Of a DNA stretch of 64,000 nucleotides, positions 3,854 to 62,375 are shown piece by piece. Position numbers and translations under genes: made by a program. Numbering within the stretch: the stretch's first letter is position 1; every line of letters starts with the position of its first letter. The DNA comes from a virus. Taxonomy: Duplodnaviria > Caudoviricetes. The notes below the pieces were generated by a model. The model had not been told where the DNA came from, did no database searches, and saw only the letters and a program-made list of their open reading frames with translations. Location: positions 1,258 to 65,257 of the IMG/VR virus record IMGVR_UViG_3300021964_000052; one strand, given 5' to 3'.

Positions 3854-4273
3854 TTATTTATTATCGTTACGTTCTTGCCATTCTAAAGATACGGAATCTT
3901 TTTCAATCGGACCACCTTTTGCCCATGTTCTGCAGCTTCTAGCTGAATGACATTTGAAGTGATGCATCCAACAGTAACCTAGTCTACCGTCTTCATCAGA
4001 GGTAACTCCAGGCATACATTCATCCATTCTAGGTGAAATATCAAATGCTACACAATTACTACAATTAGAGGCTTTAGCTGCTTCTAAAGATGTATTCCAA
4101 TATTTAGCTATATCTTTCCAGTAACTACCAGGTTTATCTACATTCAATGGTCCATACTGTACATGAGTTGCTTTAATTGAAGCATCTCTATTCTTAGTAT
4201 TAAGCATTAAATCCTGTGTTGCTACAGGGCAAGATTTATTATTTTCTTTTAAGATTATATCTCTTAACTTCAT
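3854..4273 (-). CDS. Cys-rich putative metal-binding protein (MKLRDIILKE N-terminus)
   Basis: CSNCVAF...YCWMHHFKCHSARSCRTW. Confidence 0.7.
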   Translation of the reverse strand: MKLRDIILKENNKSCPVATQDLMLNTKNRDASIKATHVQYGPLNVDKPGSYWKDIAKYWNTSLEAAKASNCSNCVAFDISPRMDECMPGVTSDEDGRLGYCWMHHFKCHSARSCRTWAKGGPIEKDSVSLEWQERNDNK

Positions 4274-4731
4274 ATATTGAAATCTTTTCTATAAAATTTA
4301 GCGAGAATGTTATCATTAATGTATTCATTATGCTCTAACACCTCTTTTATAAATAGGTATTTGCATTCAAAATATGTTAATTGCTTCTTATTCGGTACAT
4401 AACAGAGTATTTCCCTAGTAAATTCACTCTGTTTACCTTCTTTGATTAATTTTAAGATATCTTTATGAGAACCGTAATAAGTCATCCAATCTGATTCTGT
4501 AATGACTTTTTGTTTAAGTGGAACTCTTCCTCCTATACCTTTTGCTCTTCTTTCTTCCCTTAAAGCTTCTAAGGCTCTTTTACCTAATCTTTTATTTCGT
4601 TCAAAATATAAAACCTTCTTTCCAATATACTTTTTACCAGAAGGTTGATGTATAGACATATAGATAAAACCATATGTATCTTTAGGCATATCCCCTATGC
4701 TCTTTATTTCTTTACCATTAAATTTCCACAT
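4270..4731 (-). CDS. GIY-YIG-like nuclease domain protein
   Basis: YGFIY...GKKYIGKK, YYGS, FTREIL, YINDNI. Confidence 0.65.
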   Translation of the reverse strand: MWKFNGKEIKSIGDMPKDTYGFIYMSIHQPSGKKYIGKKVLYFERNKRLGKRALEALREERRAKGIGGRVPLKQKVITESDWMTYYGSHKDILKLIKEGKQSEFTREILCYVPNKKQLTYFECKYLFIKEVLEHNEYINDNILAKFYRKDFNI

Positions 4732-5279
4732 TATCCTAAATAAAACCCTGAAATTTGTAACGTATATTTATCTTTCATACCTGCATTTGCTGATAGATGT
4801 AAAGGTTTAGATGACCATAAGTAACCCTCTCCTGCTTTCCAATTATCAGATGTTTTCCAAGCATTTAGATCATTTATGTCTTGATACTGTAGCATATGTC
4901 CTACTTTCCAATCTTCTAAATAAATGTTTGCTCTTACTTTTAATCTTTTATCATCAGGGAATCTTTTATTAATTTGAAAAAAAGTATCTCTATGCAGAGC
5001 GATAGTATTGCCAGGTGGCTGTAAAATAGATGATATAGTTATTACTTCCATGTTTAATTGTTTACCTAACCCGTCAAAATCAACTATAGAGTTATCATAC
5101 CACAATTGCTGTATGACAGTATTTTCTGAGGTGTAAGTCTCTCCTAAACCATATTCTTTATGAATATCAGTTAGCTCATGTACCTGATGAGATAGGCATG
5201 TTCCTTTATGAACAGAGTAATCTTGGTTTGGGGGTAAGAAATAATTTAAGTCGTAATCTATTTTTATTTTTCGTAACAT
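4731..5279 (-). CDS. 2OG-Fe(II)/cupin-type oxygenase
   Basis: PPGNTIALHRD...H(LSANAG)...YTLQISG HxD...H triad. Confidence 0.65.
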   Translation of the reverse strand: MLRKIKIDYDLNYFLPPNQDYSVHKGTCLSHQVHELTDIHKEYGLGETYTSENTVIQQLWYDNSIVDFDGLGKQLNMEVITISSILQPPGNTIALHRDTFFQINKRFPDDKRLKVRANIYLEDWKVGHMLQYQDINDLNAWKTSDNWKAGEGYLWSSKPLHLSANAGMKDKYTLQISGFYLG

Positions 5280-6859: not shown

Positions 6860-7781
6860 AATTAACTTTTTGATTTTTTATATCTATATTAGCAAACCTT
6901 TCATATTCTTCTAGTGTTCTAATATTACCTACTCCGTATTTGCCTAAATCATCTCCCATAATTAACTTCTTTAATCTTTTCATAGCCACTCTATGGTGAT
7001 TATCAGCTATAGTTTTTTCATTATTATTAAAATGTTTTTTAGGTACTTGAGGATGAGCACGGTGCCACGCTACTATTTGACTAGGAGTATAAAAGTCATA
7101 TCCAAAAGTATAAGATCTAATTGCTAAAGCAAATTCTTCTCCAGTATAGTAATGCAAAGGATCTTGTTCTACTTCTTGTACCCATTTACCGGCTGTAAAT
7201 ATAAATCCTCCGTATATTAAGGTTATACCTTTAGGTTTAAATTCTATATCAATCTGATTATTATATCCTCCATAATCAGGCCAAAAATCCTTAGAAATAA
7301 ATTTTATTTTAGGTACCTGTAAAATAGATAAATTTTCTTTTTGTTTAAATTCTAAATCTTTATTTAATTTATCGTCTCTTGTATATGCAGGAGGTAAAAA
7401 GGAAAGCAGTGGTTTTTTAATACCCTTACCTAGTAAATTATTATAGTCTTTAATTATTATTTTATCCCAGTCTTGTATAAACCTTGTATGAGAATCTACC
7501 TGTAAGGAGTAAGTTTCATAATTATAGTTTAACTGTGCTAATTGTCTAGCCCAACACCCTCCTTTAGATTCTGTATAATGATACTTATCAACTGTAATAT
7601 TATACTTCTCTACTAAATCGTCTAGACACTTCTCTGATGTTCCTATCTTATCGTCATATTGTAAGCAAACAGAAAAATATAAATTACCTGGGTTATATGA
7701 TTTATTAATACAATCTAATATTGTATATTTAATTTCGTAATCAAGATAACTTGCTATTGATATGAAAATAGTTTGATTCAT
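6852..7781 (-). CDS. GT60-like (Skp1 hydroxyproline GlcNAc-transferase type) glycosyltransferase
   Basis: TIFISIASYLD, GGCWAR, LQVDSHTRF..WD, GGFIF, YTGEE...RSYTFGYD. Confidence 0.8.
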   Translation of the reverse strand: MNQTIFISIASYLDYEIKYTILDCINKSYNPGNLYFSVCLQYDDKIGTSEKCLDDLVEKYNITVDKYHYTESKGGCWARQLAQLNYNYETYSLQVDSHTRFIQDWDKIIIKDYNNLLGKGIKKPLLSFLPPAYTRDDKLNKDLEFKQKENLSILQVPKIKFISKDFWPDYGGYNNQIDIEFKPKGITLIYGGFIFTAGKWVQEVEQDPLHYYTGEEFALAIRSYTFGYDFYTPSQIVAWHRAHPQVPKKHFNNNEKTIADNHHRVAMKRLKKLIMGDDLGKYGVGNIRTLEEYERFANIDIKNQKVNYV

Positions 7782-10510
7782 CTTCTTAACTTTATTTCAA
7801 AATACTTTTCTAAATCTTCTAAACTTCTTTCATAACCTTCTTTAAATAATTCTTCGTTTAATAACTTACTTGAAGAGTCCTTAATTAAATATTCATTATT
7901 ATGTTCTCTGTAAGGGATATCAGAAGAAGTTTTAAAATTATAATTATGCCATATACAAGCTTCAGAGCATACTTTTAAATTCCATCCTTTTAAAAAACTA
8001 ATAAATGTTTGAAAATCTTCTTCACCGTTGAATCTAATATTATCTGGTATGTTTACCTCTTTTACCCAATCGCTGTTAGTAAATAAAAATCCTGCTGCTG
8101 CCCATTTAGTATCAAATGGTTTATTATCTTTCCATGAATCAAAGTTTTCCGCTACACATCTATTATCAGTTTCAGAATCTTTTACTAAAAACCTTTTAAC
8201 CTTTAGCGGTGCATTAAATGGTAAATTGAGATAATCTTCTCCTATATCAGGTACATCAAAATTATTAGGGTACGTAGTTAAAATAGCTTTCGGATCATCT
8301 AAAGATTTATATTGACTCAGTAATATAAGGTCCCAGTTTCTTTTAAATCTAGTATGAGAATCTACTTGTAAGAAATATTTCTCATCCTGTATTTCTTTTT
8401 TAATTTTATTTCTAGCTACAACAACACCTTTTGATTGTTCCTTAGGAGTGTATAATATAGTAAGGTCATTATATTTTAACTCTAAAACCTTATTTAATTG
8501 TTCTATAGTATCCTGTAGGTTAACGCACACTACCACTTTACTACTGTCTGAAATATTATTATAAAGGCTTTTTAATGTGTCTATAATTTGACTATCACAG
8601 TAACTTGCTATAGAAACAAATATTTTAGAGTTATCATATTCCCATGCATCTCTATACTCTCTTGCCCAATTAGCTATAAATCCTCTATCTACTTTAAAAC
8701 TAGTTTGATCTTCTTCTTTGAACTGTTCAGTATTCACTATAAAAGTTTTATCTTCTATATCGTTCATCAAACCTCTCATCCTATAAACATAGGAGGATAA
8801 AGTTGAAAGTTTATTACCGATAAATTTTATAGCTCTACTACAAATTAACTGTTCAATTATTGGTATCCAATTATTATTAAATTCTAAATGATTAAGTTTA
8901 GATTTTAAATCATTATAGAATATAACGTTATAATGCTCTTTTATTAATTTAAAAAACTTTTCATCTTGATGATCTGTGGCAATGTAGAGTGTGCCTTGTT
9001 TAGGTATTATATTTTGAATATTAATGAGAAGTTCTTCTGCGGTAATAAACAAGTCTTTGTACTGAAAATCATTTCTTCTTAGATGTAGCGAATAGTAATT
9101 CTTATCCCCTAGTAAATTTATAAAAGCCCATCCTATATCGAATATTTCATTTCTATACCTTACTGTTTTATTTATGAGTGTTTTTAAACTATCTTCATGT
9201 TTAGTAAAAAAAGTAGAATAAAAATTACCTAGTAGATTTCTATCAAAATATAAGTACCTATCATTTTCACTTATTAAATCTTTAATATTAAGTACCTCTC
9301 TCTTTTTTGTAAAACTGGTAGGTGGTTCTAAAGGTTCAAAATTATAAACACAATTATCAGTCTTTATATTTATTTCCTTACATTTACTTTTAATATTATC
9401 GAAACTATCAAAGATGTGTTCAATATCTCGAAACTCTTCGTATTTAATAATTTTAATTTGTTTATTACTAAAATCAAAAAAATCATTCAATCCACAGTAA
9501 TTTTCTAAAAGATAGTAAGAGCTATTTGGAGGTAAGACTAAAGTTCTATTTAATAAAAAAGCTATACATAAAGCTAATTCATACGACATTCTAATATTAT
9601 TAAACCCTCCAGGCCATTCTTTATAAAGTACGTATCCTTCTTCTCCGTTATAAAACTTGAAAATATTTCCATCATCAATACCTTTATAATATCTAAAATC
9701 AGTATTTTTTTGATCTATATTAGATAGAAGAAAAGTATCCAAAGTATTTCTAGCCTTTGATATATCTATTTTCTGCTCTAAGTCAAATGTATGATCTTGT
9801 TTAAAGAAGATTTGATTACCTTCTTTATCCTCAATTTTATTAGGGTAGTGAATAATACTGGGAAGAGTTCTACTATCATTGTGTTCCCATACGCTACATA
9901 TTCCTAACCTATCTAAAAATTTTATATCAATATTATTAGATTTAAAAGCATAATCTAAGCCAAACATTTCTGCTTCCCATTTTTTAGTATTAACTCTATA
10001 GTCTATACAAGCCTGTTTATAAGAATCAATAATTTTTTTAAGAGTAAAGAAATTTAAAGCAAAAGGATACATAATTCCTTTTTTACCGGTAGGATAATTA
10101 TCATTAGGCCTGTTAAAATCTTTCCATCTTTGACCAATTACTTCATTATTAGATAAATTAAAATCTACTGATTGCAAAAATATCATGTCAGGGTCCAAAA
10201 AAAGTATTTTATCTGTATCTATTAAATCTAAATTTTCACATAGCCAAGAAATAGATTCGTACTTATTAGGTATTCCGCCCCACCAGTCTTTATTTTTTAA
10301 TTCCCATTCTTTTGCCCAATCAGGTAGTTCTATAACTTTAGTATTTTTACTAAAATTAAAATCTATTTTTTCGTTTTTATGATTGATATCCTCTGAGAGA
10401 AGTATAGTAAGTTGACCTGTTTGGTTTACATTCTCAAAAGATCGTTCTAGATATTCAAGTTGCCATTTTTGGTAAAGGCACTTGCTTGTACTCACTACTA
10501 CATAGTCCAT
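7778..10510 (-). CDS. Three-domain glycosyltransferase: GT95/GT96-like + O-fucosyltransferase-like + GT60-like
   Basis: N: YQKWQ, GQLTILLS, PNK..SWL, LDPDMIF, WEAEMFG; middle: GGFNNIR, NRTLVLPP, HLRRNDF, LYIATD, EQLICS, STLS; C: IFVSIASY, LQVDSHTRF, AAGFLF, FNGEE. Confidence 0.8.
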   Translation of the reverse strand: MDYVVVSTSKCLYQKWQLEYLERSFENVNQTGQLTILLSEDINHKNEKIDFNFSKNTKVIELPDWAKEWELKNKDWWGGIPNKYESISWLCENLDLIDTDKILFLDPDMIFLQSVDFNLSNNEVIGQRWKDFNRPNDNYPTGKKGIMYPFALNFFTLKKIIDSYKQACIDYRVNTKKWEAEMFGLDYAFKSNNIDIKFLDRLGICSVWEHNDSRTLPSIIHYPNKIEDKEGNQIFFKQDHTFDLEQKIDISKARNTLDTFLLSNIDQKNTDFRYYKGIDDGNIFKFYNGEEGYVLYKEWPGGFNNIRMSYELALCIAFLLNRTLVLPPNSSYYLLENYCGLNDFFDFSNKQIKIIKYEEFRDIEHIFDSFDNIKSKCKEINIKTDNCVYNFEPLEPPTSFTKKREVLNIKDLISENDRYLYFDRNLLGNFYSTFFTKHEDSLKTLINKTVRYRNEIFDIGWAFINLLGDKNYYSLHLRRNDFQYKDLFITAEELLINIQNIIPKQGTLYIATDHQDEKFFKLIKEHYNVIFYNDLKSKLNHLEFNNNWIPIIEQLICSRAIKFIGNKLSTLSSYVYRMRGLMNDIEDKTFIVNTEQFKEEDQTSFKVDRGFIANWAREYRDAWEYDNSKIFVSIASYCDSQIIDTLKSLYNNISDSSKVVVCVNLQDTIEQLNKVLELKYNDLTILYTPKEQSKGVVVARNKIKKEIQDEKYFLQVDSHTRFKRNWDLILLSQYKSLDDPKAILTTYPNNFDVPDIGEDYLNLPFNAPLKVKRFLVKDSETDNRCVAENFDSWKDNKPFDTKWAAAGFLFTNSDWVKEVNIPDNIRFNGEEDFQTFISFLKGWNLKVCSEACIWHNYNFKTSSDIPYREHNNEYLIKDSSSKLLNEELFKEGYERSLEDLEKYFEIKLRR

Positions 10511-11804: not shown

Positions 11805-13361
11805 TTACGGTTCCCCAGGTACACCAGGAGGTCCAGGAGGTCCAGGAGGTCCAGGAGGTCCAATACTAGGTGCTGGAGTCGGGGCAGGTGTTGGACTAGG
11901 TGTCGGAGCAGGTGTTGGACAATTTGCTGCAGGATTAACTGGTACAGCATCTGTTGTATTAATTCTATATTCAAATAACCTAGATTTAGAACCATCCGAT
12001 AAATAGAATAGATCACCGTCTCCATAATTTAAACCTATCCATAAACCTTCTACTGTGGTTACATTAGAACTATCGAACGTAGTTGCTCCATATATAAATG
12101 TAGTGTTGTTAGTATTACCTGAACAAGCATTACCAGCTGATGTACTATGAGCAAGTGATTGAGTTCCGCTTACTACTGGAGCTGGAGTAGGAGCAGGTGT
12201 TGGTGCCGGAGTAGGTGCTGGTGTTACTGGTGCTGGTGTAGGTGCCGGAGTTGGACTAGGTGTAGGACTAGGCGTTGGTGCCGGTGTAGGTGCTGGTGTT
12301 GGTGCAACAGGAGCAGGTGTCGGACTAGGAGTAGGTGCCGGAGTAGGAGCAGGTGTTGGACATGCTACTGCTGCTTGTTGTGGAGTTGCACCACTAGAAG
12401 CCTTTTTAAATTGTCTAGTATCAGTTCCATCAGATACCCAGAATATAGTATTTGTAGCGTATCCTCCTATTGTTATACTATCTATCGATGTAACACTAGA
12501 CCCAGCAAATGTTGTATCATCATAAATTATTGTACCGTAAGCTGTATTGTCATCTCCTCCGCTACATGCATCGTCAGCGTCACTAGTTGAGTAGTATAAA
12601 TCTTCATTACCTGTTACTATAGGAGCTGGAGTAGGAGCAGGTGTTGGTGCCGGAGTAGGAGCAGGTGTTACTGGTGCCGGAGTAGGAGCAGGTGTTGGTG
12701 CTGGAGTAGGAGCAGGTGTTGGTGCCGGAGTAGGTGCCGGAGTAGGTGCCGGAGTAGGTGCTGGAGTCGGGGCAACAGGTGCCGGAGTTGGAGCAGGTGT
12801 CGGGCTAGGTGTTGGTGCCGGAGTAGGAGCAGGTGTTGGAGCAGGTGTTGGACTAGGAGTAGGACAAGTAACTGATGAAGCTTGTGGTGTACCGTACTGA
12901 CTAGTTTTAGCAAATTCTCTACTATCTGTACCATCTGATACCCAGAATGTAGTACTGGCTGCATATCCTCCGGTTTTTATACTGTCTATATAAGTTACAT
13001 TAGCACTAGTAAATGCTGTTGCTCCTGCTATGTAAGTACTATATGCAAGTCCGTCGTCTCCTCCACTACAAGCATCATTTCCAGATGTAGTAGAATAGTA
13101 TAAAGATTGATTATTATTAACTATAGGGGCTGGAGTAGGAGCAGGTGTTGGAGCTGGTGTTGGAGCTGGTGTTGGAGCTATTGGTGCTGGTGTAGGTGCT
13201 GGAGTTGGAGCTCCTAAACCGTAAAATTCATCCATTGAATCAGGAGAGGTCAACCCGAAAGCTAATGATGCAGAAGTAAGATTTAGTTCAGCTTGAGTAC
13301 TATTTCCTAATTCATCATTAAGATCCTCGAATGATATAGGTCCTGACGACTGTATTGCCAT
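11805..13361 (-). CDS. Pro/Thr/Ala-rich (PTPA)n virion protein with three Cys-flanked domains and C-terminal GPP repeats
   Basis: N-terminal [19 protein letters not shown]...SMDEFYG module; four PTPA tracts; three AC...SDG...C domains; directly follows the tail fibre gene. Confidence 0.85.
11808..11861 (-). repeat. Collagen-like (GPP)4-GVP-GEP tract
   Basis: aggaggtcc x4 tandem on the plus strand. Confidence 0.9.
12178..12360 (-). repeat. 12-nt period coding repeat, PTPA tract 3
   Basis: ggagtaggtgcc-type degenerate tandem repeats. Confidence 0.9.
12621..12863 (-). repeat. 12-nt period coding repeat, PTPA tract 2 (longest)
   Basis: About 20 PTPA-like units. Confidence 0.9.
13125..13211 (-). 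repeat. 12-nt period coding repeat, PTPA tract 1
   Basis: ggagctggtgtt-type units. Confidence 0.9.
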
Positions 13362-13363
13362 AA

Positions 13364-16300
13364 CTAGTCTTTTAATTTATTCTCTAACTCTTCTACTTTA
13401 CTTGATAATTCTTTTACTGCTTCAATTAATACTGCTGTTAGTTTATCATATTTAACGCCTAAATACCCTCCGTGCATTTCTCCTACAACTTCAGGAAGTA
13501 CGTGTTTAACGTCTTGTGCTACAACTCCTATATCATGACCTTTAAATGTATGTACATTTTCATTTCCAGCTTTCCAATCGAAGTATACTCCTCTTAATTT
13601 ATGAATTTTTTCTAAAGGACTATTAATAATTTTAATATTTTCTTTTAATCTATTATCAGATGAAGCAAATGCTGTAATATTTCCTGTTGCTGTTATCGCA
13701 CCTCCTACCTCTAACTGTGCACCAGTTGTCGTAACTGGCATCTTAACATATTTAGAAGTAGCTGAGATTACCTGCATACCGCCGGCTGTTATCTCTGAAA
13801 ATTCTAACGCTGTACCAGCAGCAGCTGAAACCGTTACTGCGGAACATATTGGAGGTCTATAATCAACCGATAAAACGTTAAGTCCTCCTCCACCATTTGA
13901 AGCATAAGCTGAGATAACAATACTTTTTATAAAAGTTCTCACACTATAAGATGCTCCTAGCTGTAGAGTTACGCCGTTGAAGTTAATATCTAGATTTCCA
14001 GTATCTAGAGTTATAACTTCATCTCCTGATCCTGAGTTACCAAAATTATATAGTTTGGTTTGTATAGTAGAAATAGAACCTTGATAATTTTTACGTAGTT
14101 CTGCTCCTACAGTTATACCTACAGTATGAGATACAGATCCATTTCCGTAAGGATCGTAGGGGCTAAATTCTGATTCAATGTAATGTGAAGTTAATTGAGG
14201 ATTTATAGTAGCAGAAAAAGAAGCATTAACATTATCATAAGCAGATGTTACTGCTGATGATGAAGGAGGTGTAGTATCACTGTTATATAAAGGACCACTA
14301 AAGTTAAAAGTAACATATCCTGAAGTAGAGTTACTAAATCCAGTTCCGTTATTTGTATTACTGATAGTTCCTGTCATAGTTAAAGGAGCTCCAGTATTAG
14401 TTGCAGATAACGAAGTGTTTCTATTTATTCTAACTCTAGCATCACTACCAGAGTAAATTGTTATAGAGGGTGCATCTCCTGCGACTATTTCTATAGAGTC
14501 GTTACCGTCAGAACCAGTAGCAACTAATTCATTTCCTGTAACTGTAAATCCTGCTATAGTACCTCCAGATGCATTAATAGTTCCTTCAATATTAGCATCT
14601 GTCGCCAGTACTGAACCATCGGCAGCAACTGCGAATTTAGGATTTGCAGTATTCGGGACTGTTATTGTAGAACCTACGATAGAACCACTTACACTTAATG
14701 ATGAACCGTCAAACTCTACAAAGTTATTTGCAGTACCTGCTTTAAAACTTCCATCAGCAAACCATTTGTTGTTTGCATTGAGGTATAATCCGTCGTCTGA
14801 GCCACTTACATTAGATCCGAAATAAAAATTATTAGCATTTAATTTACCGGATAGATTAATATTACCTGAGAATGTACCGGCTGTTGCTGTTATATTCCCA
14901 GTTATGGTTGCACTAGTAGCAGTTAATGCTCCTGCTTTAGTAACCTGGAATTCTGCACTACCTTGTGTAGCATGACCAATCCACATATCTCCATCTGATG
15001 CAACTCTAAATATGTCATTTCCTGAACCTATACTTAAACTACCACCAGTAATAGAAGGAGCAGAAAAAGATCCTCCACTTAAGGTCATATTCTCAGCATT
15101 TATATTACCAGCAAAGTATCCTTCTGAAGCTGATATTATCCCGTCTACAATTAATTCTGATTCAGATGCATCCCAGGCTAAACCTCCAGTTGATCCACTT
15201 AAATAGAAATCTCCATTACTAGCCATGTAAGTTGCCCAGTGGGAGGCTGAATGGAATCCTAAATAATTACTTCCTATATATAGTCCAGGAGTAGAAGAAG
15301 GTATTGCAGCCTTTACAACACTACCTGAAACATTAGTAAATGTTCTATTATCTAAATTAGTAACATCAGTAGTTAAGTTATTAATATTACTTGTATTAGT
15401 AGAAGCACTTGCGGTAGCTTGATTTGCTGTGCTTTGTGCATCATTTATCGCATCGTAAGTGGCACCTGAGCTAATAACTATAGAACCGGCTATATCGGCA
15501 TTAGATGCTGTTAAGTTTCCTTCTGCATCTACATTAAAATTACTTCCGATAGCTATGGTACCCCCAGTAATTGCTCCTTTAAACGTCGCTCCACTGTTGT
15601 CTATTACAAACTCTGTACTATGTATTGAACCTGCTTTTGCAAAAGTTATACCGCTAGTGGTAAACCCGCTAGTATCTTTTGCAGAACCTGAGCTAAATAT
15701 GGCATCACTGTCGATATTCCATCCACCAATCGTACCGTCTGTAGCAGTAATAGTACCGTTAATAGTTGCATTAGTAGCTGTTAATGCTCCTGCTGGTGTA
15801 ACTCTAAAAGGTGCTGATGTAAATGTGGCATGCCCTAGAGAGATACCGTTGTTATTTGCTTTAAATATATTATTTGAAGTAGTTCCAATTTCAATAGTAG
15901 AACCAGAAATTAACCCTCTAAATGTAGCATCACCGTCGGAAGCTATTTTAAATTGTTTTGCTCCGATAAACCCTGCTCCTAATGTTATCTGTCCATCTGA
16001 AGAAGCAAATGTATCATCGGCAAGTTCTGTACCTCTATAAATGGCGTTTGAGTCGATTGTCCATCCTCCGACTGATCCTTTTGTTTTAACTAAAGTTTCA
16101 GGGGCGATATGAACTCTATCAACTATTATTTCGTTGGTACCTGCTCCGGTCCAATTTAGTATAATAGGAGAGGCATAAACAGCTGATTCGGTTGGTGTAT
16201 AGTAAAATAAGTATTCAGTAAATGAAGTACCTAAACCAATATCATCTAAATCTAATGCAGCTCCATTTGAAGCTGTTGCAAAGGATGAGATTTGTCTTGT

Positions 16301-45635: not shown

Positions 45636-45651
45636 AAATTAATTTTTAAAG

Positions 45652-45725
45652 TAGTCCCTGTAGGAGTCGAACCTACAACCTCCTGATTCGTAGTCAGGTG
45701 CTCTATCCAATTGAGCTAAGAGACT
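45652..45725 (-). tRNA. tRNA-Arg(ACG), CCA not encoded
   Basis: AGTCTCT/AGGGACT acceptor, GCTC D-stem, CCTGA-CT-ACG-AA-TCAGG, GTAGG-TTCGACT-CCTAC. Confidence 0.95.
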
Positions 45726-52637: not shown

Positions 52638-52811
52638 CTACCCAAATAACATTTGTTTACTATTAGAAGAACCTTCACTAATAATCTTATGATCTACAAT
52701 ATGTCTGTTCCTACACCATTGCTCAATTGACCATTCAATTCTATCAGTTGTAAGTTCTACTTCTTCTTTAATTCCGTTTGCGTGAGTAAACTCTATAATG
52801 TATTTTTTCAT
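52638..52811 (-). CDS. 57-aa hypothetical protein (not in ORF track)
   Basis: MKKYIIEFTHANGIKEEVELTTDRIEWSIEQW...KQMLFG; ATGA-coupled. Confidence 0.7.
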   Translation of the reverse strand: MKKYIIEFTHANGIKEEVELTTDRIEWSIEQWCRNRHIVDHKIISEGSSNSKQMLFG

Positions 52812-53971
52812 AGTTTAAGTAAATCGTTAGTATATGACTTTAATTTTTTTATATTAATAAATAGATTTCCTAATTTGAATTCTCCTACTTCACCATTGTT
52901 ATCTAGAATTTGTGATAATTGCTGAATAATATTATAGTCTTCCTTAGTAAAAGTTTTTGATTTAATTCTAATAAAAATATCTACCTGTTTAAATGTATTA
53001 AACTTATCCTTTAAAGGTACAATTGTATTAGGTTGTTCTTTATTAATATAGTTTTCTAATATTTCGTCTGGAGTATCTGTTAAGTTAATATTATCTGCCC
53101 ATGGTTCTAAAGCTTCTAAAAGTTCAGGAGTGCATTCATCTATCCATAAACCTATATTGTACTTATTAGGTATTATAGGTTTCATAAGAGAGTCGTGTAA
53201 TACAAAATGTCCCCATTTACGAATAAAGTTACGTCCGTTCTTAGTAGTAGTCTGTATCCATTCTTGGCTGTTTTTGCCAGCAGCTCCTCCTGAATGTTTA
53301 TTAAATCTAGATCCTCTAGAAGTAAAGTGGTATACTAATGCATCCCATGGTTGGATGAATTTATACCCATTAAGTTGGAATCGATTAAACAAGTCCGAGT
53401 CTTCTTTAGATTGAGGAGCAAATAATTCATCATGTCCTCCTACAGCTAAAAAATCTTCTTTATACATACACCATGGAGCAAAAATACCTTCAGTAGTCTT
53501 ATCCTCTTTTAATTTATCGCTTCCTTCATACCAAGCATCAATATTAAATTCATCTACTTCTATACCGTAGTTACGAAGAATCTTTTCTGGTCCATCAGGA
53601 TGTAATGGTGGTTCAACTCTAGTTCCGGAAACTACTTTACCTCTTTCTAAATGCTTAAGAATATTTTTATCGTAATCTCTACATACAACCATATCGGAAT
53701 GGAAAGCACAAATTATATCTGTACGTGCCATTTCTATTCCTCTATCAAACATACCAACGATTCCTATCCTATCTGGTCCTGGGTTATGAAAAGTAATAAG
53801 ATCCAAATCATCTTGAGCATCAATCCAATCTTGAGTACCGTCTGTTGAGGCATCATTAAGAACTAATATTTCATGCTTAGTTTCTAAATCTCTAATGGAT
53901 TTATAAGCTAGTTGTAAAAACTCTAGATTATTTCTAGAGGGTATAACAAATGTAATTTTATTTAAATTCAT
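52808..53971 (-). CDS. GT2 glycosyltransferase
   Basis: TFVIPSRN, NDASTDGT, HSDM, VGGHD.LF...EDSD..R. Confidence 0.9.
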   Translation of the reverse strand: MNLNKITFVIPSRNNLEFLQLAYKSIRDLETKHEILVLNDASTDGTQDWIDAQDDLDLITFHNPGPDRIGIVGMFDRGIEMARTDIICAFHSDMVVCRDYDKNILKHLERGKVVSGTRVEPPLHPDGPEKILRNYGIEVDEFNIDAWYEGSDKLKEDKTTEGIFAPWCMYKEDFLAVGGHDELFAPQSKEDSDLFNRFQLNGYKFIQPWDALVYHFTSRGSRFNKHSGGAAGKNSQEWIQTTTKNGRNFIRKWGHFVLHDSLMKPIIPNKYNIGLWIDECTPELLEALEPWADNINLTDTPDEILENYINKEQPNTIVPLKDKFNTFKQVDIFIRIKSKTFTKEDYNIIQQLSQILDNNGEVGEFKLGNLFINIKKLKSYTNDLLKL

Positions 53972-54797
53972 TTTCTATATAATCTTGAATATTAATAGTT
54001 GCTTTCCATCCTAATACTTCTTCAGCAGTAGTATCTGTGTTAAGAGTATTTCTAGCTTCACCAGGTCTAGCCGGTACGTATTTAAAGTCTACTCCTATCA
54101 TTCTAATTAATTCATTTATAGAATAGTTCTCTCCTCTTCCTAACTCAAACTCATACCCCCAAGCTTTTTGCTCACCTATTTTATAGAGTGCAGAAACTAT
54201 ATCATCTATATGAGTAAAGTCTCTTCTTTGATTACCATCTCCTGTAACTAAAAGAGTTTTATTATCTCTAAAAGCTTTTAACCAAATACCGATAACAGTA
54301 CAGTACCCTCCTACTTCTAATTGATAGGGACCATAAACGTTATAGAATCTAGCAATAGAGGCTTTTAAACCGTAATGCTTTTGATAAAGTTCTACAATAT
54401 CCTCTCCTACATCCTTAGAAAAAGTATAAGGGTTTTTAAATCTACCACTATGTTTAGAAGACGATCCTGCGTAAACTATAGGTACGTTATTTTTTGCACA
54501 CCAATCAATTAAATTTAAACTTCCGTTCGCGTTTGTAGTAAAGTAATCAATTGGATTTTTAAATGAAGGTTGAATCCTAGCAATAGCAGCCATATGAAAT
54601 ACTAGATTTGGTTCTAACCAGGAATAGTCTTTTATGTTTCTAATATCATAATTAAGGTATTCACATCCTTCAATATGATTCTCTTTTAATCCAGTATGGT
54701 AGTTATCTATACTAACTACTTGATGACCTTCTCTAAGAAGTCTAATAATTAGATTTGTTCCTACAAATCCTGCTCCTCCTGTAACAATTATTTTCAT
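53958..54797 (-). CDS. NAD-dependent sugar epimerase/dehydratase (extended SDR)
   Basis: TGGAGFVG, YTFSK, RFYNVYGP, GDG.Q.RDF.HIDD. Confidence 0.92.
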   Translation of the reverse strand: MKIIVTGGAGFVGTNLIIRLLREGHQVVSIDNYHTGLKENHIEGCEYLNYDIRNIKDYSWLEPNLVFHMAAIARIQPSFKNPIDYFTTNANGSLNLIDWCAKNNVPIVYAGSSSKHSGRFKNPYTFSKDVGEDIVELYQKHYGLKASIARFYNVYGPYQLEVGGYCTVIGIWLKAFRDNKTLLVTGDGNQRRDFTHIDDIVSALYKIGEQKAWGYEFELGRGENYSINELIRMIGVDFKYVPARPGEARNTLNTDTTAEEVLGWKATINIQDYIENEFK

Positions 54798-55468
54798 TTT
54801 AATCTTCTGATTTTAGTTTTTTCAAACGTTGTATCGTAGTAGAGAATAGCGTTGCCATATAGCTCTTTCATACGTTTTACTTCTTCAAGATAGTAAATTT
54901 CTTGCAGAAAGTCAACTTTATTTAACTCTAATCCTGCATAAGTATAAGGTTCGAAATGTAATGAAGGATGTTTGTTCTCTAAACATTTCTGTTTGTACTT
55001 TTCAAAATTAGTTAAATCAAATACCTCTAGGTATAATTCTGATGTCATAAAGAATAGCTCACTACGGTAAGGTAAACTTTTATTGTCGTTGAAAATACCT
55101 TCATTATCAAAGCACCACTGTCTAGGAATTCCTCCAACTTTACAATTAGAATTTTTAAAATCTTCAAACATATCTTTCATAAGAGATGGTTGTTCAAATA
55201 TCATATCTGCATGATAATGTAAAACAAAAGGTTGAGTAATTAAATCCCTTCCAGCTGATGCTAGATATAAGGCACCCATGTGCTTGCCTGGGTTGTTATC
55301 CAGCCAATATATTGAAAGGTTAGTCTCTTCTTTTATTTGCTTTATCCTTTCTTTATTTTCATTATTAGTTATGTAATGAAATTTATAAGGTAGCTCTACA
55401 TCTTTGAATATATGATACTGAGTGATTAACTCTTCTACGTCGTAACAGGTAACTATAACATCTAACAT
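54794..55468 (-). CDS. Putative GT-A fold glycosyltransferase
   Basis: NPGKHMGA, HYHADM; cluster context. Confidence 0.45.
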   Translation of the reverse strand: MLDVIVTCYDVEELITQYHIFKDVELPYKFHYITNNENKERIKQIKEETNLSIYWLDNNPGKHMGALYLASAGRDLITQPFVLHYHADMIFEQPSLMKDMFEDFKNSNCKVGGIPRQWCFDNEGIFNDNKSLPYRSELFFMTSELYLEVFDLTNFEKYKQKCLENKHPSLHFEPYTYAGLELNKVDFLQEIYYLEEVKRMKELYGNAILYYDTTFEKTKIRRLK

Positions 55469-56184
55469 TACTTACCTCTTTCTAATTCGTTTATGTAAGG
55501 ACTAATAGCATAAGTATCAGCTAACCATCCTATATTTTCTGCTCCATTTAGTTTAGTCTGTTTATACCCATTTAAGTTCACACATATATTAGCCCAAAGT
55601 AAATTCCCGCTTGCACCATCGTAAGGATCTGCTAACCATTCAAAACCTTTCATTTCTCTAAAAGTTTTAGCTTTCATAGCCATAAAACTTGCTCTTAAAT
55701 TTTTACAATATCCCGGTTCGGTAAAAAACTCTTTATTAACTGCAACTTCTTTCCAAGTATACTTGCTCCCAAAAGGGAAAGGTTCATCAGTATTGTTAGG
55801 AGTTATAATAGCATCAGGATCTAAATAAAAAGATGGATTACTTCCATTTCCCATTAGCTTATATCCTGAGTTTAATTTATCTATCACTATAGGTAAAAAG
55901 TTCCAATCTAAAACTTCAATGTCGTCATGAGTAAAAAAACATATAGTATCGTCATCAGGGTCTAAATCGAAAAACCCGTCTGTATATCCTTTCCATTCTA
56001 TCCCTACATTTTCATATTCAGCATAGTCAAAATTGTCTTTAATAAATTGAGGAGGTGCTTTTTTACATACAAAGTATACCTTTATATCTATTTCAGGATT
56101 ACTCTTAATTAATTCTAGCAACCCTTCCTGGTATGATTTAGGATTATAATGCCAGCCAAGTATAATAAACTGAATCTTTAACAT
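55468..56184 (-). CDS. Putative GT-A fold glycosyltransferase
   Basis: YENVGIEW.GY, FFTHDD; cluster context. Confidence 0.5.
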   Translation of the reverse strand: MLKIQFIILGWHYNPKSYQEGLLELIKSNPEIDIKVYFVCKKAPPQFIKDNFDYAEYENVGIEWKGYTDGFFDLDPDDDTICFFTHDDIEVLDWNFLPIVIDKLNSGYKLMGNGSNPSFYLDPDAIITPNNTDEPFPFGSKYTWKEVAVNKEFFTEPGYCKNLRASFMAMKAKTFREMKGFEWLADPYDGASGNLLWANICVNLNGYKQTKLNGAENIGWLADTYAISPYINELERGK

Positions 56185-56861
56185 AAATCAGAAAAAGTTT
56201 TATAGTTTAAAATATGTCCTTGATCCAACAAAGCATTCAAAACTGATCTAAAGTATTGATAGTTTTGCTCATCCCAATTATTTTGATTATACTTACCGGC
56301 TATATGAGATTGAAAATATAAATTATTTCCATCTATACTTAATGTAGAAGCATTATGAATAGGATTTTCTCCTTTAAACACCCTTATTGAATTTAACTTT
56401 ATATTATCGTTCAAGTTACCGTGAATAGCTACATAATCAAAGTATTCAGTTACAGCATCAAAAGCACCTTGAGAAGCAACCCAGCCAGGCATTCTCCATC
56501 CCTTAGGTCTATGGTTAACTTTATCCCACTCTTCTAAACTTTGCTCTATCCTATCTTTAGCTGATTTATAATCTAGCTCAATGAATTCACATTCTCGGCA
56601 GCTAGGAGAAGGATTTACTCTGTCATGAAAATGACCATGAGCTGCTAACTCAACCCAATCAAACTGCTTCCAGTAATCTATCCAACTCTTATTTTCAGAT
56701 AAAGAAAATTTACGATGATAATTAGAAGGTATAAACTGTACAAACTTACATCCGAATTCCTGATTTAGTTTTATCAAGTAATCAGTACATTTGTCTTCTT
56801 TTACTCCCCATCCTATTTCAGGATGAGTATCGTCGATTGGAATAACTACATCTAAATTCAT
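56178..56861 (-). CDS. Polysaccharide deacetylase-like protein
   Basis: IDDTHP, ELAAHG..H, EF, GWRMPGW, SH. Confidence 0.75.
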   Translation of the reverse strand: MNLDVVIPIDDTHPEIGWGVKEDKCTDYLIKLNQEFGCKFVQFIPSNYHRKFSLSENKSWIDYWKQFDWVELAAHGHFHDRVNPSPSCRECEFIELDYKSAKDRIEQSLEEWDKVNHRPKGWRMPGWVASQGAFDAVTEYFDYVAIHGNLNDNIKLNSIRVFKGENPIHNASTLSIDGNNLYFQSHIAGKYNQNNWDEQNYQYFRSVLNALLDQGHILNYKTFSDLC

Positions 56862-57811
56862 AGAGTATTAAAAAAATCTGTTAAGTACTTATTTACTGCT
56901 TCTTCACTATGATATTTTTTATAATTTAATTGAGCTTTTTCACTGCATTCATTATAAAAGTCTTTATCCTCTTTTAACATATTAACTAATTCTATAGCTG
57001 TTTCTAAATCGTTCATTCCAACACAAAGATCAGGATGAATATTTTGTTGAGTATCTAATTCACCATAACCAATACATGGTATACCTAAAAATCCACAATT
57101 CATAGCAAACGTACCTGCTGCAATAGTTGGCATTAAATGTATAGCATATTTAAATTCAGCTAGTTTATATACCCAGTCTTTCCATTCCATATAAGGTAAG
57201 TGTTTAACTAGTACTTCTTCATTAGGCTGTCTCCTTCCCATAGAAGGTGCCCATATAGGAATACCAAAATGTCTAGCTGCTACAAAACTATCAAATCCTC
57301 CATACCATCTTGTAAAATTACCTCCAATAATAACTTTATCTTGCTTTTCAATATTTAATGCTTCTTCAACTAAATCTGTAATCATTAAGGAAGTTATATC
57401 ACTTACTGGTATTTTAGAGTTTATTCCTTTAAAGTATTTTATATCTGTTTTGTTTTCGGTAAGTATACCATCTACCTTAGATAGTAAGTTATAATGCCAT
57501 ACTTGCTGCTCTACAGTCATATCTTGAAATATCCAACTAGGACCTTCTTGCATAAACATTACTTTTTTAGCTTTTTTTCTAGCTTCACTAACTATATCTA
57601 TTCCTTCTAATCTATCTCTATCTATACCTGTCTTAGGTATCAATAATACAGCTATATCGTATATTTTATCTATAGAATTAATAGAAAATAAGTTATAATG
57701 ATCAGCTTGTAGAGTACACATTTGAGCAAACTCTACTCTCATATTAGTATGAGTTCTAGGAACCTTACCATTAAACCCCATTTGAGAAAAAAATACGATT
57801 GACTTATCCAT
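56858..57811 (-). CDS. Putative GT-B fold glycosyltransferase
   Basis: GTFAMNC..LGIPCIG C-terminal GT-B pattern. Confidence 0.6.
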   Translation of the reverse strand: MDKSIVFFSQMGFNGKVPRTHTNMRVEFAQMCTLQADHYNLFSINSIDKIYDIAVLLIPKTGIDRDRLEGIDIVSEARKKAKKVMFMQEGPSWIFQDMTVEQQVWHYNLLSKVDGILTENKTDIKYFKGINSKIPVSDITSLMITDLVEEALNIEKQDKVIIGGNFTRWYGGFDSFVAARHFGIPIWAPSMGRRQPNEEVLVKHLPYMEWKDWVYKLAEFKYAIHLMPTIAAGTFAMNCGFLGIPCIGYGELDTQQNIHPDLCVGMNDLETAIELVNMLKEDKDFYNECSEKAQLNYKKYHSEEAVNKYLTDFFNTL

Positions 57812-58472
57812 GTAAAAAATTATTTAGTTTATCTAAATTCATTCTAGTATCTTTAGGTACATAAGTTGGAGCTGTAATTAATTTACCTTCTGGGTTTAAA
57901 TCTTTTAAGTTTTTATCTCCTGTACCTACATTATAAACTCCACAGGCATCATTCATTACTAACTCTATAATTAGGTTTGCTATCTTTGATACCTTATCAC
58001 CAGATGTTCTTACATCCCAAACCTCAGCATGATTAAACTCTTCTGGTTTGTGGAGCTCTCTACAGATAAGATAATCATTATTATTTAACTGTATATACTC
58101 ATCTGCAAGTAACTTAGTATAGGCATACCAAGTATTATCTGGGAGTGGTAGATCATCCTCTGAAGGAGGAACTAAGTTATTAGCGTAAACATACTCAGTT
58201 GAGATATGTACTAGCTTTTTATTTTTTGCGTTACAAAAATCACTGAGCATTGCAGCAAACTTATAATTTACATTCCAGTGAGGTTGCTTATTTTTTGAAT
58301 AAGAATCAGTATGAGCAATACAGTTAATAATAATATTGTAGTCGTAAGCTAAAGTTATTAGTTCTTTATAATTTTCTATATCTAGGTTACCTAACTTTCT
58401 AGAAGCTATAGTCCATCCTGTTTGATTACTTAGTTCTCTTCCAAGAATGCCATCACCTAGAATAAGTACCAT
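57804..58472 (-). CDS. RmlD-like sugar-nucleotide reductase
   Basis: LGDGILG, INCIA.T, HISTEYVY, YAYTK. Confidence 0.8.
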   Translation of the reverse strand: MVLILGDGILGRELSNQTGWTIASRKLGNLDIENYKELITLAYDYNIIINCIAHTDSYSKNKQPHWNVNYKFAAMLSDFCNAKNKKLVHISTEYVYANNLVPPSEDDLPLPDNTWYAYTKLLADEYIQLNNNDYLICRELHKPEEFNHAEVWDVRTSGDKVSKIANLIIELVMNDACGVYNVGTGDKNLKDLNPEGKLITAPTYVPKDTRMNLDKLNNFLHG

Positions 58473-59614
58473 TACTTATTAAAAAATACTTTTATTAATC
58501 CACATACATGGTCTACATCTTCAATAGTCATACCATGATGAGCTCCTAGTAGGAAACCGTTCTTCATAATAATATCTGAGTTTTTAAACTCTTGAAGGTA
58601 CTCTCTATAAACTGGATGTCTTGTAACGTTACCGGCAAACGTAACTCTTGTCTGAACATTATTATCTTCTAAGAAAGAAAGTAATTCAAATCTTTTTTCT
58701 GTTTGTAGTGGAATTGCTAACCAATTAGGTTTGATACTATCATCTGGTAGGATTAAATCTCCTACTCCATCTAATAGCTCTAAATATCTTTCAAAGTTCT
58801 CTCTTCTAATATTAGAAAACTTCTTAAATCTCTCTAACTGAACTAATCCAAATGCAGCGTTCATCTCACAAGCCTTCATATGATAACCTAATACTGAGTA
58901 TAAGAATTTATGATCGTACGCTATTCCGTCTACTGAATGATTAAATCTGTCATCCATAATTTCCGAGTCGTCTCCTAATCTACCCCAATCTCTATATTGA
59001 AGACATTTAGTAACGTGTTTTTCATCGTTATACATAACCATTCCTCCAACACCTCCTGCGGTAATAACGTGTGAAGCATAGAAACTAGTAGTAGCTACAT
59101 CTGTAACTGGAGTTTTAGTAATAGTATCAGCAGAATCTTCTATTAAGAATATATCTCCTCTACCTTTTTCTTCTAAATAAAGCTTAAGTTTATCCCAGTC
59201 TGGTTTATTACCTATTAAGTTAGGAAGCATAATAGCTTTAACATCATCAGTAACAGCTTCTACTACTTGATCTATTTCAGCCTGATAAGTTGTCAACCCA
59301 ACATCTACAAATACGGGTTCAAATCCTAATTGAATTATAGGAGCAAGTGTAGTAGCAAAAGTACAAGCAGGAGTAATAATTTTAGAACCTTTAGGTAAAT
59401 CTAAAGCTGCTATTGCTAATAAACAGGCTGATGAGCCAGAGTTAACAAATACTCCGTGTTTCTTTCCAAATCTCTTTGCTATTTCTTTTTCGAATTCAAC
59501 ACTTTTAGGACCTTGTCCTCCAAGCCATCCACTTCGGAGTGCTTCTTCTACAGCTTTAATTTCCTCTTCGCCATAGGATTCAAATTTGTAAGGTGCGTAC
59601 CAAATTTTCTTCAT
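58472..59614 (-). CDS. DegT-family PLP enzyme, probable 4-keto-6-deoxyhexose 3-dehydratase (ColD/DdhC-like)
   Basis: FVNSGSSA, EDSAD, SFYASHVIT (His at the usual Lys position), RDWGR. Confidence 0.85.
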   Translation of the reverse strand: MKKIWYAPYKFESYGEEEIKAVEEALRSGWLGGQGPKSVEFEKEIAKRFGKKHGVFVNSGSSACLLAIAALDLPKGSKIITPACTFATTLAPIIQLGFEPVFVDVGLTTYQAEIDQVVEAVTDDVKAIMLPNLIGNKPDWDKLKLYLEEKGRGDIFLIEDSADTITKTPVTDVATTSFYASHVITAGGVGGMVMYNDEKHVTKCLQYRDWGRLGDDSEIMDDRFNHSVDGIAYDHKFLYSVLGYHMKACEMNAAFGLVQLERFKKFSNIRRENFERYLELLDGVGDLILPDDSIKPNWLAIPLQTEKRFELLSFLEDNNVQTRVTFAGNVTRHPVYREYLQEFKNSDIIMKNGFLLGAHHGMTIEDVDHVCGLIKVFFNK

Positions 59615-59616
59615 AA

Positions 59617-59997
59617 CTATAAATTATTTTGTTTAATTATTTCTTTTAATTGCTTACTTGTAAGTGTACCGACTTTATCTTTAACATTAAAAAATATTTC
59701 ATCTTCTGAAAAGTCAAACCTAGTAACAGTATATAAGTCTCTTTCTATTACAATGCTGCTTTTCTTAGAAGCTTTTAAAGTATCTTCAATAAACTGTTTA
59801 AATTGGTTTACTGATAGTTTTAATACTCCATAGGATTCCATAAATACTCCATCTAAGTAAAACCCATCAGAGTTTCCGTTTTTAAAGTAAATAGAAGTAA
59901 TGTCTTCTTTTGTAGAAATGCTAAGTCCCTCTACTCTATATGATTGAGTATAACATATAGTTGAAAATAGGAAAAAAAGTACAGTTATTTTTTTCAT
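59617..59997 (-). CDS. Secreted hypothetical protein
   Basis: MKKITVLFFLFSTICYTQ signal peptide (Gln at +1, Bacteroidota style). Confidence 0.7.
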   Translation of the reverse strand: MKKITVLFFLFSTICYTQSYRVEGLSISTKEDITSIYFKNGNSDGFYLDGVFMESYGVLKLSVNQFKQFIEDTLKASKKSSIVIERDLYTVTRFDFSEDEIFFNVKDKVGTLTSKQLKEIIKQNNL

Positions 59998-61081: not shown

Positions 61082-61083
61082 AA

Positions 61084-62373: not shown

Positions 62374-62375
62374 AA

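Follow-up and report, generated by a model that had tools for sequence, protein, structure and literature searches.

Glycans linked to hydroxyproline (Hyp) are found in plant cell walls and in the oxygen sensing of protists through Skp1. The Hyp O-glycosylation of plant extensins and arabinogalactan proteins (AGPs) involves prolyl 4-hydroxylase (P4H), HPAT1-3 (GT95), SGT1 (GT96) and RRA/XEG113 (GT77). In Dictyostelium and Toxoplasma, Skp1 is modified by the P4H PhyA, by Gnt1 (GT60), by the fused two-domain enzyme PgtA and by AgtA (GT77). Mimivirus has a collagen hydroxylase/glucosyltransferase, and BclA is a collagen-like glycoprotein of Bacillus anthracis. The virions of mycobacteriophages are reportedly glycosylated, and we know of no prolyl hydroxylase, HPAT, POFUT or GT60 domain, nor of a dedicated Pro-rich substrate gene, in those systems. 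To our knowledge, phage protein glycosylation is known from few cases, and Hyp-linked glycans are regarded as a eukaryotic speciality. The subject of the present analysis is an open reading frame (ORF) of 910 amino acids (aa) with three fused glycosyltransferase (GT) domains, together with its neighbouring genes, in a 64,000-nucleotide stretch (positions 1,258 to 65,257; hereafter the window) of the IMG/VR viral record IMGVR_UViG_3300021964_000052.

With moderate confidence, this triple GT is proposed to be the core of a phage-borne, cytoplasmic O-glycosylation cassette for a Pro/Thr-rich structural protein that would be modified on Hyp and/or Thr/Ser. The substrate of a tandem P4H would be an adjacent 518-aa protein, whose (T/A/S)-P repeats, and perhaps also GPP tail, it would hydroxylate on proline. 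The three GT domains and a neighbouring GT60 enzyme would add sugars to Hyp and/or Thr/Ser of these repeats, the likely donors being UDP-HexNAc-type for GT60 and GDP-L-fucose or GDP-L-galactose for the O-fucosyltransferase (O-FucT) domain. A NodU-type carbamoyltransferase would O-carbamoylate a sugar. The product would be a fibre protein of 'beads-on-a-string' form that carries many glycans, like extensins, AGPs or mucins, and belongs either to the virion or to the infected cell.

Three glycosyltransferase domains in one protein

A preliminary description, made from the letters alone, had divided the 910-aa protein into three GT domains by means of motifs compared by eye. The ORF is intact, and profile and fold evidence was obtained for each domain. 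All of the motifs quoted were found in the order given, namely YQKWQ (residue 13), GQLTILLS (32), NK..WL (82), LDPDMIF (105) and WEAEMFG (178), followed by GGFNN (301), RTLVLPP (322), HLRRNDF (476), LYIATD (508), EQLIC (553) and STLS (569). As judged from sequence, they mark real domains rather than chance resemblances. The full-length predicted model has a pLDDT of 88.7 and a pTM of 0.86, with a weak linker at about residues 600-620 (below 50 at 610-614). Its Foldseek matches fell into three groups: the two-GT-A enzyme LARGE1, POFUT2/POFUT1, and the polypeptide GalNAc-transferases (ppGalNAc-Ts).

The lack of a GT-A fold in the N-terminal region had been named as grounds for giving up the three-domain reading. 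The fold is present. Domain 1 was modelled confidently by AlphaFold2 (pLDDT 86.6, pTM 0.86), and the top Foldseek matches were retaining GT-A enzymes, the GT6 blood-group transferases GTB/GTA (E ~1e-9) and LARGE1, at TM ~0.5. The DxD motif D106-P107-D108 is invariant in the aligned relatives. The proposed likeness to plant HPAT and SGT enzymes was supported by way of relatives and profile–profile comparison rather than by a direct Pfam match. The HPAT profile PF23452 (gathering cut-off 23.9 bits) matched 21 of 31 aligned relatives at E < 0.01, with a best E of 4e-16 (alignment A1). Five full-length homologues scored above the cut-off (P0027, P0079, P0083, P0109 and P0110; 25.5-29.8 bits), P0071 scored under it (20.5 bits), and no match to PF23452 appeared when the complete record was searched in six frames. 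When 11 fused N-domains (alignment A3) were compared by hhalign with three stand-alone proteins annotated with PF23452 (A4), the profiles matched at 99.1% probability and E 1.3e-18 over 231 columns, with the YQxWQ, NK, DPD, WxxEMW and IIHY motifs in register. On the profiles and the predicted structure, domain 1 is considered a genuine glycosyltransferase of GT-A fold that belongs, remotely, to the HPAT superfamily.

The N-domain family is rare, since phmmer found only 68 relatives at E <= 1e-3 among 1.84 billion representative proteins. The nearest of them belong to phage and bacterial clusters. No match to the N-domain was found by tblastn in the phage collection at E up to 1, and the family profile gave only insignificant matches to PDB sequences. 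Plant HPATs have a type II membrane (Golgi) anchor; such an anchor was looked for in the 910-aa protein and was absent. Enzymes of the family transfer L-arabinofuranose, or galactose in the case of SGT1, to peptidyl Hyp or Ser. No UDP-arabinose synthesis genes were seen.

The central domain agrees with the O-FucT pattern attributed to it. Residues 293-581 matched PF10250 with E 5e-27 and 95.8 bits (cut-off 31.5), and covered 1-325 of the 326 profile positions. When 21 full-length homologues were combined in a profile, it matched human and Caenorhabditis elegans POFUT2 (E 6e-7), so aligned that HLRRNDF of domain 2 stands opposite HLRRKDF of human POFUT2. H476, R478 and D481 of this H-x-R-x-x-D motif are invariant in the 21 sequences. 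Foldseek returned POFUT2 (E 7e-11) and POFUT1 (E 5e-9), within a range of 7e-11 to 1e-8 and with target TM values of 0.43-0.53, at sequence identities to the solved POFUTs of about 16-20%. The position mutated in the POFUT2 structure 4ap6 (E54A) falls on the Gly of PGGFNN, in an insignificant stretch of the alignment (i-Evalue 640). E54 is the catalytic base of POFUT2.

Domain 3 belongs to GT60, as had been suggested, and it is paralogous to the product of the next gene. It matched PF11397 ('GlcNAc', GT60) with E 1.5e-32 and 113.9 bits (cut-off 21) and the glycosyltransferase family phrog_24687 with E 5e-25. The stand-alone paralogue is 29% identical to it over about 300 aa (E 1e-21), with a common QVDSHTRF motif. 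In the DxH motif D717-S-H719, which is shared with the paralogue, D717 and H719 are invariant in the 21 sequences. The Foldseek matches were ppGalNAc-T1, T2, T4 and T10 (E ~1e-9); GT60 is related to the GT27 polypeptide GalNAc-transferases.

The three domains had been pictured as an assembly line for a multi-sugar glycan. Three initiating transferases acting in parallel are at least as likely, because the addition of a first sugar to a polypeptide is the activity both of the HPAT family and of the enzymes closest in structure to domain 2 (POFUT1/2) and domain 3 (ppGalNAc-Ts), which glycosylate polypeptides directly. These predicted structural relationships favour initiators over a serial order.

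Cassette organization and candidate substrate

In the direction of transcription, the order of genes is the 2608-aa fibre, the 518-aa Pro/Thr-rich protein, a 415-aa dioxygenase, the triple GT, the GT60 paralogue and the carbamoyltransferase (Table 1). The last four genes overlap: the hydroxylase stop and the GT start share TAATG, the GT stop and the GT60 start share ATGA, and the GT60 and carbamoyltransferase genes share 8 nt. The overlaps indicate that these four genes are translationally coupled.

Residues 6-187 of the dioxygenase matched P4Hs of Bacillus anthracis (E 1e-24), human (C-P4H alpha-2 catalytic domain, E 1e-20), Chlamydomonas (E 1e-14) and PBCV-1 (5c5t, E 3e-12). From these matches, the N-terminal half is identified as a collagen-type prolyl 4-hydroxylase. 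The C-terminal half has an HxD...H pattern of its own, read from the translation, and has no relative among PDB sequences; Atlas clusters labelled P4H or 2OG-FeII_Oxy_3, taken as leads only, point to a second P4H-like domain. With a collagen-type P4H directly upstream of the triple GT and no membrane segments, the comparison with the Skp1 enzymes made in the preliminary description proved apt.

The combination of a 2-oxoglutarate (2OG)-Fe(II) oxygenase, GTs and a carbamoyltransferase is superficially like that used for hypermodification of phage DNA. In such a system hydroxymethylated bases would be glycosylated and carbamoylated, in the style of TET-associated clusters. This reading was largely rejected and is very improbable: the oxygenase is of the collagen P4H type (E 1e-24 to 1e-12 against solved P4Hs), a search of the 65-kb record for Tet_JBP (PF12851) gave no match up to E 1, the GTs belong to families of protein O-GTs, and the cassette is linked to Pro-rich ORFs.

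No membrane-like segment was found in any cassette protein, the maximum KD19 value being 1.47, inside the O-FucT domain, and the 910-aa ORF opens directly with a catalytic domain. Because none of the cassette proteins has such a segment, the enzymes must, by this sequence criterion, work in the bacterial cytoplasm. Phage GTs are most commonly assumed to serve superinfection exclusion or receptor masking, and the GTs described here might likewise remodel glycans of the host envelope (lipopolysaccharide, capsule or Bacteroidota surface glycoproteins) during infection. PHROGs class phage GT and carbamoyltransferase genes under 'moron, auxiliary metabolic gene and host takeover', a second sugar cluster lies at 52.8-63.8 kb of the window, and homologous cassettes with genes on both strands occur in cellular Bacteroidota contigs from metagenome-assembled or single-amplified genomes (MAGs or SAGs). 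Nevertheless, this role is judged unlikely. The cassette proteins have no membrane segment, and a flippase or polymerase was not seen in the cassette. Polypeptides are the acceptors of all three domain families and of the enzymes closest to them in structure. Moreover, the cassette is tied to Pro-rich ORFs and a prolyl hydroxylase, and it lies inside the tail-fibre module, not among early or moron genes.

The carbamoyltransferase also matched phrog_1601 (E 4e-118). NCBIfam gave no match for the three GT/hydroxylase proteins and only a sub-threshold NodU match for the carbamoyltransferase. A part in the sugar step is suggested for this enzyme because it is found fused to a stand-alone O-FucT domain (L046) and to a triple GT (P0071). 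The 182-aa ORF that follows it may belong to the cassette. BLASTP identities to its counterparts were 64-89% in L003-L008 and L023, and it was also matched in L029, L043 and L044; it had no match in Pfam or PHROG.

The candidate substrate begins with a 52-aa head, followed by four linkers with strict (T/A/S)-P alternation (residues 53-79, 168-247, 336-395 and 479-518), in which TPAP occurs 37 times. Its three modules of 83-88 aa are homologous to one another and contain two, two and one Cys from first to third, and another Cys opens the last linker. The C-terminal 18 residues are collagen-like and consist of six G-X-Y triplets. By analogy, this tail is a possible trimerization element and a classical substrate motif for the neighbouring P4H. 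Pro-rich ORFs were defined by at least 30% Pro in 40 aa. By this measure the 518-aa protein stands alone among the 61 window ORFs of at least 90 aa, and none of 39 ORFs in the syntenic 43 kb of Flavobacterium phage vB_FspM_immuto is Pro-rich. The GC content rises over the repeat gene, with a positive GC skew; the codon composition of the repeats explains this better than foreign DNA.

Related loci and the carrier phage

A search with the 910-aa protein listed 120 clusters, 103 of which cover at least 93% of the query. Named sources are few among the listed clusters and are all Bacteroidota/Saprospiraceae MAGs or candidate division CSSED10-310. In the phage collection, tblastn gave single-domain matches only, in six records, namely Synechococcus phage S-SCSM1 (O-FucT) and Xanthomonas/Stenotrophomonas jumbo phages (GT60). 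Related loci were sought with the single protein, which confirmed none, and with alignment A2, which gave 78 viral and four MAG/SAG loci. A full-length triple GT is present in 39 of the fetched loci, many of which are near-duplicates, so that counts are not independent.

The gene that immediately precedes the triple GT is homologous to the tandem hydroxylase in 31 of the 39 loci and encodes a 325-aa short-chain dehydrogenase/reductase (SDR) epimerase in seven; in one locus it is cut by the contig edge. The fusion itself varies. Longer relatives add a second GT60 domain (about 1205 aa, e.g. P0012), a PLOD-type GT domain or the carbamoyltransferase already mentioned, and shorter relatives of about 600-720 aa have O-FucT and GT60 only. 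Simpler cassettes consist of a Pro-rich ORF, a P4H, a 354-aa O-FucT and a GT60 (L047, L048), or of a Pro-rich ORF, a P4H, a radical-SAM/SPASM ORF and a GT60 (L053-type, L064-type). The loci can be described as a 'domain-shuffling series' that runs from a minimal set of Pro-rich ORF, P4H, O-FucT and GT60 to five-domain proteins of about 1500 aa.

Pro-rich repeat ORFs were found in 17 of the 39 triple-GT loci. Among L046-L080, which are 35 loci without a full triple GT, such an ORF was present in 12 of 13 with a hydroxylase compared with 5 of 22 without one. As in the window, it lies directly upstream of the hydroxylase in L047, L048, L064, L067, L074 and L075. The related Pro-rich ORFs have 13-residue or TPSITTTPS repeats between small Cys-containing modules. 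GT60-only loci proved unsuitable as a control without Pro-rich ORFs, since many carry simpler versions of the cassette.

In L030, L032, L042 (at about 7.2-9.0 kb) and L045 (3540-5288), ORFs of about 480-580 aa were observed two genes upstream of the triple GT, which has no hydroxylase gene beside it in these loci. They consist almost entirely of TPSITTTPS or VTPSP repeats, with small Cys-rich modules, and resemble mucins, so that they are candidate substrates of the Thr/Ser type. A radical-SAM/SPASM ORF lies between the tandem hydroxylase and GT60 at 9088-9990 of L053, where Pfam was applied to that ORF only; 300-aa ORFs in the same place in L054, L055, L064, L065, L067 and L075 are provisionally assigned to this family by size and position. 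It would be another type of peptide-modifying enzyme in the context of the cassette.

The epimerase of L010 (16782-17753) matched Arabidopsis GDP-mannose 3',5'-epimerase (GME) over its full length with E 1e-97. GME-like genes occur in 26 of the 39 triple-GT loci and also in L020, L046, L047, L048 and L050, all with an O-FucT domain; they occur in none of 31 GT60-only loci, and none was found in the window. Because GME co-occurs with the O-FucT domain and not with GT60-only loci, GDP-L-galactose is a possible donor of the O-FucT-like domain in the phages that bear GME.

Expanded cassettes with genes on both strands were observed in L083 (a Bacteroidota SAG) and L084 (a Saprospiraceae MAG). Their triple GT is about 1520 aa long, and the other genes include one more P4H-like gene, a PF03407 gene of GT77 type, a GME gene, and genes for PLOD-GT/DUF1796 and PLOD-GT/GT6 proteins. 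A histidine-kinase ATPase domain is encoded nearby in L084. Such a system may exist in cells as well; alternatively, the two contigs may represent a prophage or DNA from an infection.

Another possible target of the enzyme is a set of other phage structural proteins, such as the 2608-aa fibre, the capsid or the tail tube, glycosylated on Ser/Thr. The hydroxylase would then act independently, for example on the GPP tail, with the Pro-rich neighbour no more than a fibre whose PT linkers are rigid. Such modification would be similar to the glycosylation of mycobacteriophage virions. The cassette does lie within the tail-fibre module, the 2608-aa fibre is rich in Ser, Thr and Gly, domains 2 and 3 resemble Ser/Thr-directed polypeptide GTs, and the hydroxylase best matches collagen P4Hs, whose classical substrate the collagen-like tail resembles. 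Against this, the hydroxylase and GT genes overlap by stop and start codon and stay together in 31 of the 39 loci; Pro-rich ORFs are far commoner beside the cassette than in the background; and the N-domain comes from a Hyp-directed family. We therefore regard modification of other structural proteins as rather improbable.

Several of the observations also used in that alternative weigh against the preferred explanation, that of a cassette dedicated to the Pro/Thr-rich protein. In 8 of the 39 loci the triple GT has no hydroxylase gene beside it, and seven of the eight keep the GTs and still carry Pro/Thr/Ser-rich ORFs; the GTs may therefore not require hydroxylation, and their true targets may be Thr/Ser. 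No Pro-rich ORF was found within the fetched flanks of 22 of the 39 loci, and the near-duplication noted above reduces the weight of all such counts. The X-P repeats alternate, with only four Pro-Pro pairs in the 518-aa protein, whereas plant HPATs use contiguous Hyp blocks, which these repeats lack; PT-type linkers are also common as rigid spacers that need no modification. The window's own N-domain (292 aa) has no Pfam match even at E 10, and no GME or other sugar-nucleotide gene for the GT domains was found near the cassette in the window. The 518-aa protein has no relatives in PHROG, in the phage collection (by tblastn) or in the protein databases, and its globular repeat (residues 80-167) has none among proteins of 284-907 aa. 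Structural PHROG hits were obtained for 2 of 10 related Pro-rich ORFs (weak, phrog_15100). For these two reasons, a location of the 518-aa protein in the virion is inferred from gene position alone.

The source of the window is a 65-kb viral record estimated to be 40% complete, nearly all of which the window covers, at about 31% GC. The listed ORFs of at least 100-120 aa all lie on one strand, except for a few short plus-strand ORFs inside longer minus-strand ones, and their products include baseplate-wedge and tail-fibre proteins, a primase and an exonuclease. The baseplate wedge protein is 63% identical to that of immuto, a 160-kb phage, with which the window shares the gene order baseplate, tail fibres/spikes, phrog_447 gene, primase and exonuclease. 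The C-terminus of the 2608-aa fibre matched the tail-fibre/baseplate families phrog_8215 (E 8.5e-40) and phrog_14572 (E 7e-17). The glycosylation cassette is flanked precisely by the tail-fibre/spike genes on one side and the conserved phrog_447 gene on the other, and no homologue of the 910-aa protein was found in immuto. From the wedge identity and the synteny, the carrier is therefore assigned to Bacteroidota myophages of roughly the 160-kb type, closest to immuto; it is neither a eukaryote nor a giant virus. The term 'eukaryote-type', which had been applied to the three domains, holds at the level of families but not of lineage, as the carrier is such a myophage and the nearest N-domain relatives fall in phage and bacterial clusters.

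The phrog_447 ORF, like its immuto counterpart, forms the conserved downstream edge of the variable fibre/cassette region. A second sugar-related cluster and a single tRNA gene, the latter amid small ORFs, were observed elsewhere in the window. The second cluster may supply unusual nucleotide sugars or modify another target. Megablast of window positions 1-25000 against the phage collection gave no match.

Table 1. Position of the features discussed, numbered from the first letter of the window
Feature	Position	Strand	Evidence or remark
ORF matching phrog_447 ('NAD synthetase' annotation)	4270-4731	-	immuto counterpart is gene 171
ORF of 182 aa, family unassigned	4731-5279	-	kept directly downstream of the carbamoyltransferase in the closest loci
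NodU/CmcH-type O-carbamoyltransferase, 521 aa	5294-6859	-	Carbam_trans_C E 3.5e-62; Carbam_trans_N E 8e-20
Stand-alone GT60 paralogue, 309 aa	6852-7781	-	PF11397 E 2.6e-47, 162.5 bits
Triple-GT ORF, 910 aa	7778-10510	-	translation; ATG start, no internal stop
Domain 3, GT60 GT-A, residues ~591-910 (core 630-865)	7778-8740	-	PF11397
Domain 2, O-FucT/POFUT-like, GT-B-type, residues ~293-590	8741-9634	-	PF10250
Domain 1, HPAT-like GT-A, residues 1-292 (folded core ~1-270)	9635-10510	-	model, Foldseek, profiles
Tandem 2OG-Fe(II) dioxygenase, 415 aa	10510-11757	-	P4H matches; PF13640 E 2e-14
Candidate substrate, 518 aa	11805-13361	-	47 nt upstream of the hydroxylase gene
Collagen-like C-terminus of the candidate substrate	11805-11858	-	six G-X-Y triplets
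Rise in GC content	12001-14000		GC 0.42 compared with ~0.30 elsewhere; coincides with the repeat gene
Tail-fibre protein, 2608 aa	13364-21190	-	directly upstream of the cassette; C-terminal PHROG matches
tRNA-Arg	45651-45725	-	anticodon ACG
Second sugar-related cluster	52808-63821	-	
GT2 glycosyltransferase	52808-53971	-	second sugar cluster
SDR closest to UDP-glucose 4-epimerases	53958-54797	-	second sugar cluster
DegT/DnrJ-type sugar aminotransferase	58472-59614	-	second sugar cluster
Two GT4/phrog_2170-like glycosyltransferases	61084-62373, 62376-63821	-	second sugar cluster

A wider reading, offered tentatively, is that a full and self-sufficient pathway of Hyp/Thr O-glycosylation exists in phages of aquatic Bacteroidota and in some of the Bacteroidota as well, and that it would make extensin-, AGP- or mucin-like glycoprotein fibres in the bacterial cytoplasm. 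Its parts would be the substrate gene, the tandem P4H, the HPAT-like, POFUT-like and GT60 domains and the O-carbamoyltransferase, to which relatives add the GDP-L-galactose-forming epimerase and GT77, PLOD and GT6 enzymes. If true, Hyp-linked glycosylation of proteins would for the first time be found beyond eukaryotes and the giant viruses that infect them, and the pathway would constitute a prokaryotic or viral reservoir of the enzyme families of plant cell-wall and protist Skp1 glycosylation. A literature search, with subscription journals and supplements outside its scope, found no HPAT/POFUT/GT60 fusion and no P4H-GT-Pro-rich cassette in phages.

Five adjacent genes, encoding the candidate substrate, the hydroxylase, four GT domains and the carbamoyltransferase, make a compact system that can be tested. 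It could show whether bacterial viruses make Hyp/Thr-glycosylated fibres and whether such a coat has a role in adsorption, protease protection or host range. The cassette also bears on the origin of the HPAT, GT60 and POFUT families, and its soluble enzymes could be useful for the glyco-engineering of proline-rich proteins in bacteria.

Comparison with described glycosylation systems

Among viruses of bacteria, the mycobacteriophage systems are alike in that phage GTs lie beside structural genes and O-glycosylation of virion proteins is proposed or shown, but the GT families and the hosts differ. In giant viruses, the P4H of PBCV-1 is homologous to the phage hydroxylase, and PLOD-type GT domains are fused to relatives of the triple GT. 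Their hosts, however, are eukaryotic, and no GT is coupled to the PBCV-1 enzyme. A review gives the role of the PBCV-1 P4H as unknown and Hyp as undetected in virions (PMC7019647). The P4H of Bacillus anthracis is the best solved relative of the phage hydroxylase, and the 518-aa protein ends in collagen-like triplets. Nevertheless, only 18 of its residues are collagen-like, the bulk being TPAP repeats, and the GT set is different.

The central domain has the PF10250 match, the HxRRxD motif and the fold in common with POFUT1 (GT65) and POFUT2 (GT68). It differs from them in its low sequence identity, and no EGF or TSR acceptors are present in the phage system. The GME neighbour in the phage relatives suggests GDP-L-galactose as an alternative donor.

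The Skp1 pathway shares with the cassette its cytoplasmic enzymes, the sequence of P4H followed by GT60 and the presence of multi-domain GT fusions, and GT77-type genes occur in related loci. In contrast, the phage has no Skp1 target, and its candidate acceptor is a long repeat protein. Among the solved P4Hs that it matched, the phage hydroxylase groups with those of collagen type. HPAT-like and O-FucT domains take the place of the GT2 and GT74 enzymes, and a carbamoyltransferase is added.

As in the plant extensin/AGP pathway, a P4H adjoins an HPAT-family GT-A domain in the cassette, the candidate substrate has (T/A/S)-P repeats resembling glycomodules, and GT77-type PF03407 genes join the cassette in L083 and L084. 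Unlike the plant enzymes, those of the cassette are predicted to be soluble and cytoplasmic and are encoded by a phage, with three GTs fused; the phage N-domain is too divergent for the HPAT model, and the repeats have no SPPPP blocks. By analogy, the cassette thus resembles both the plant extensin/AGP and the protist Skp1 pathways of Hyp glycosylation, with which it would have in common a P4H, an HPAT-family domain, GT60 and, in its relatives, GT77.

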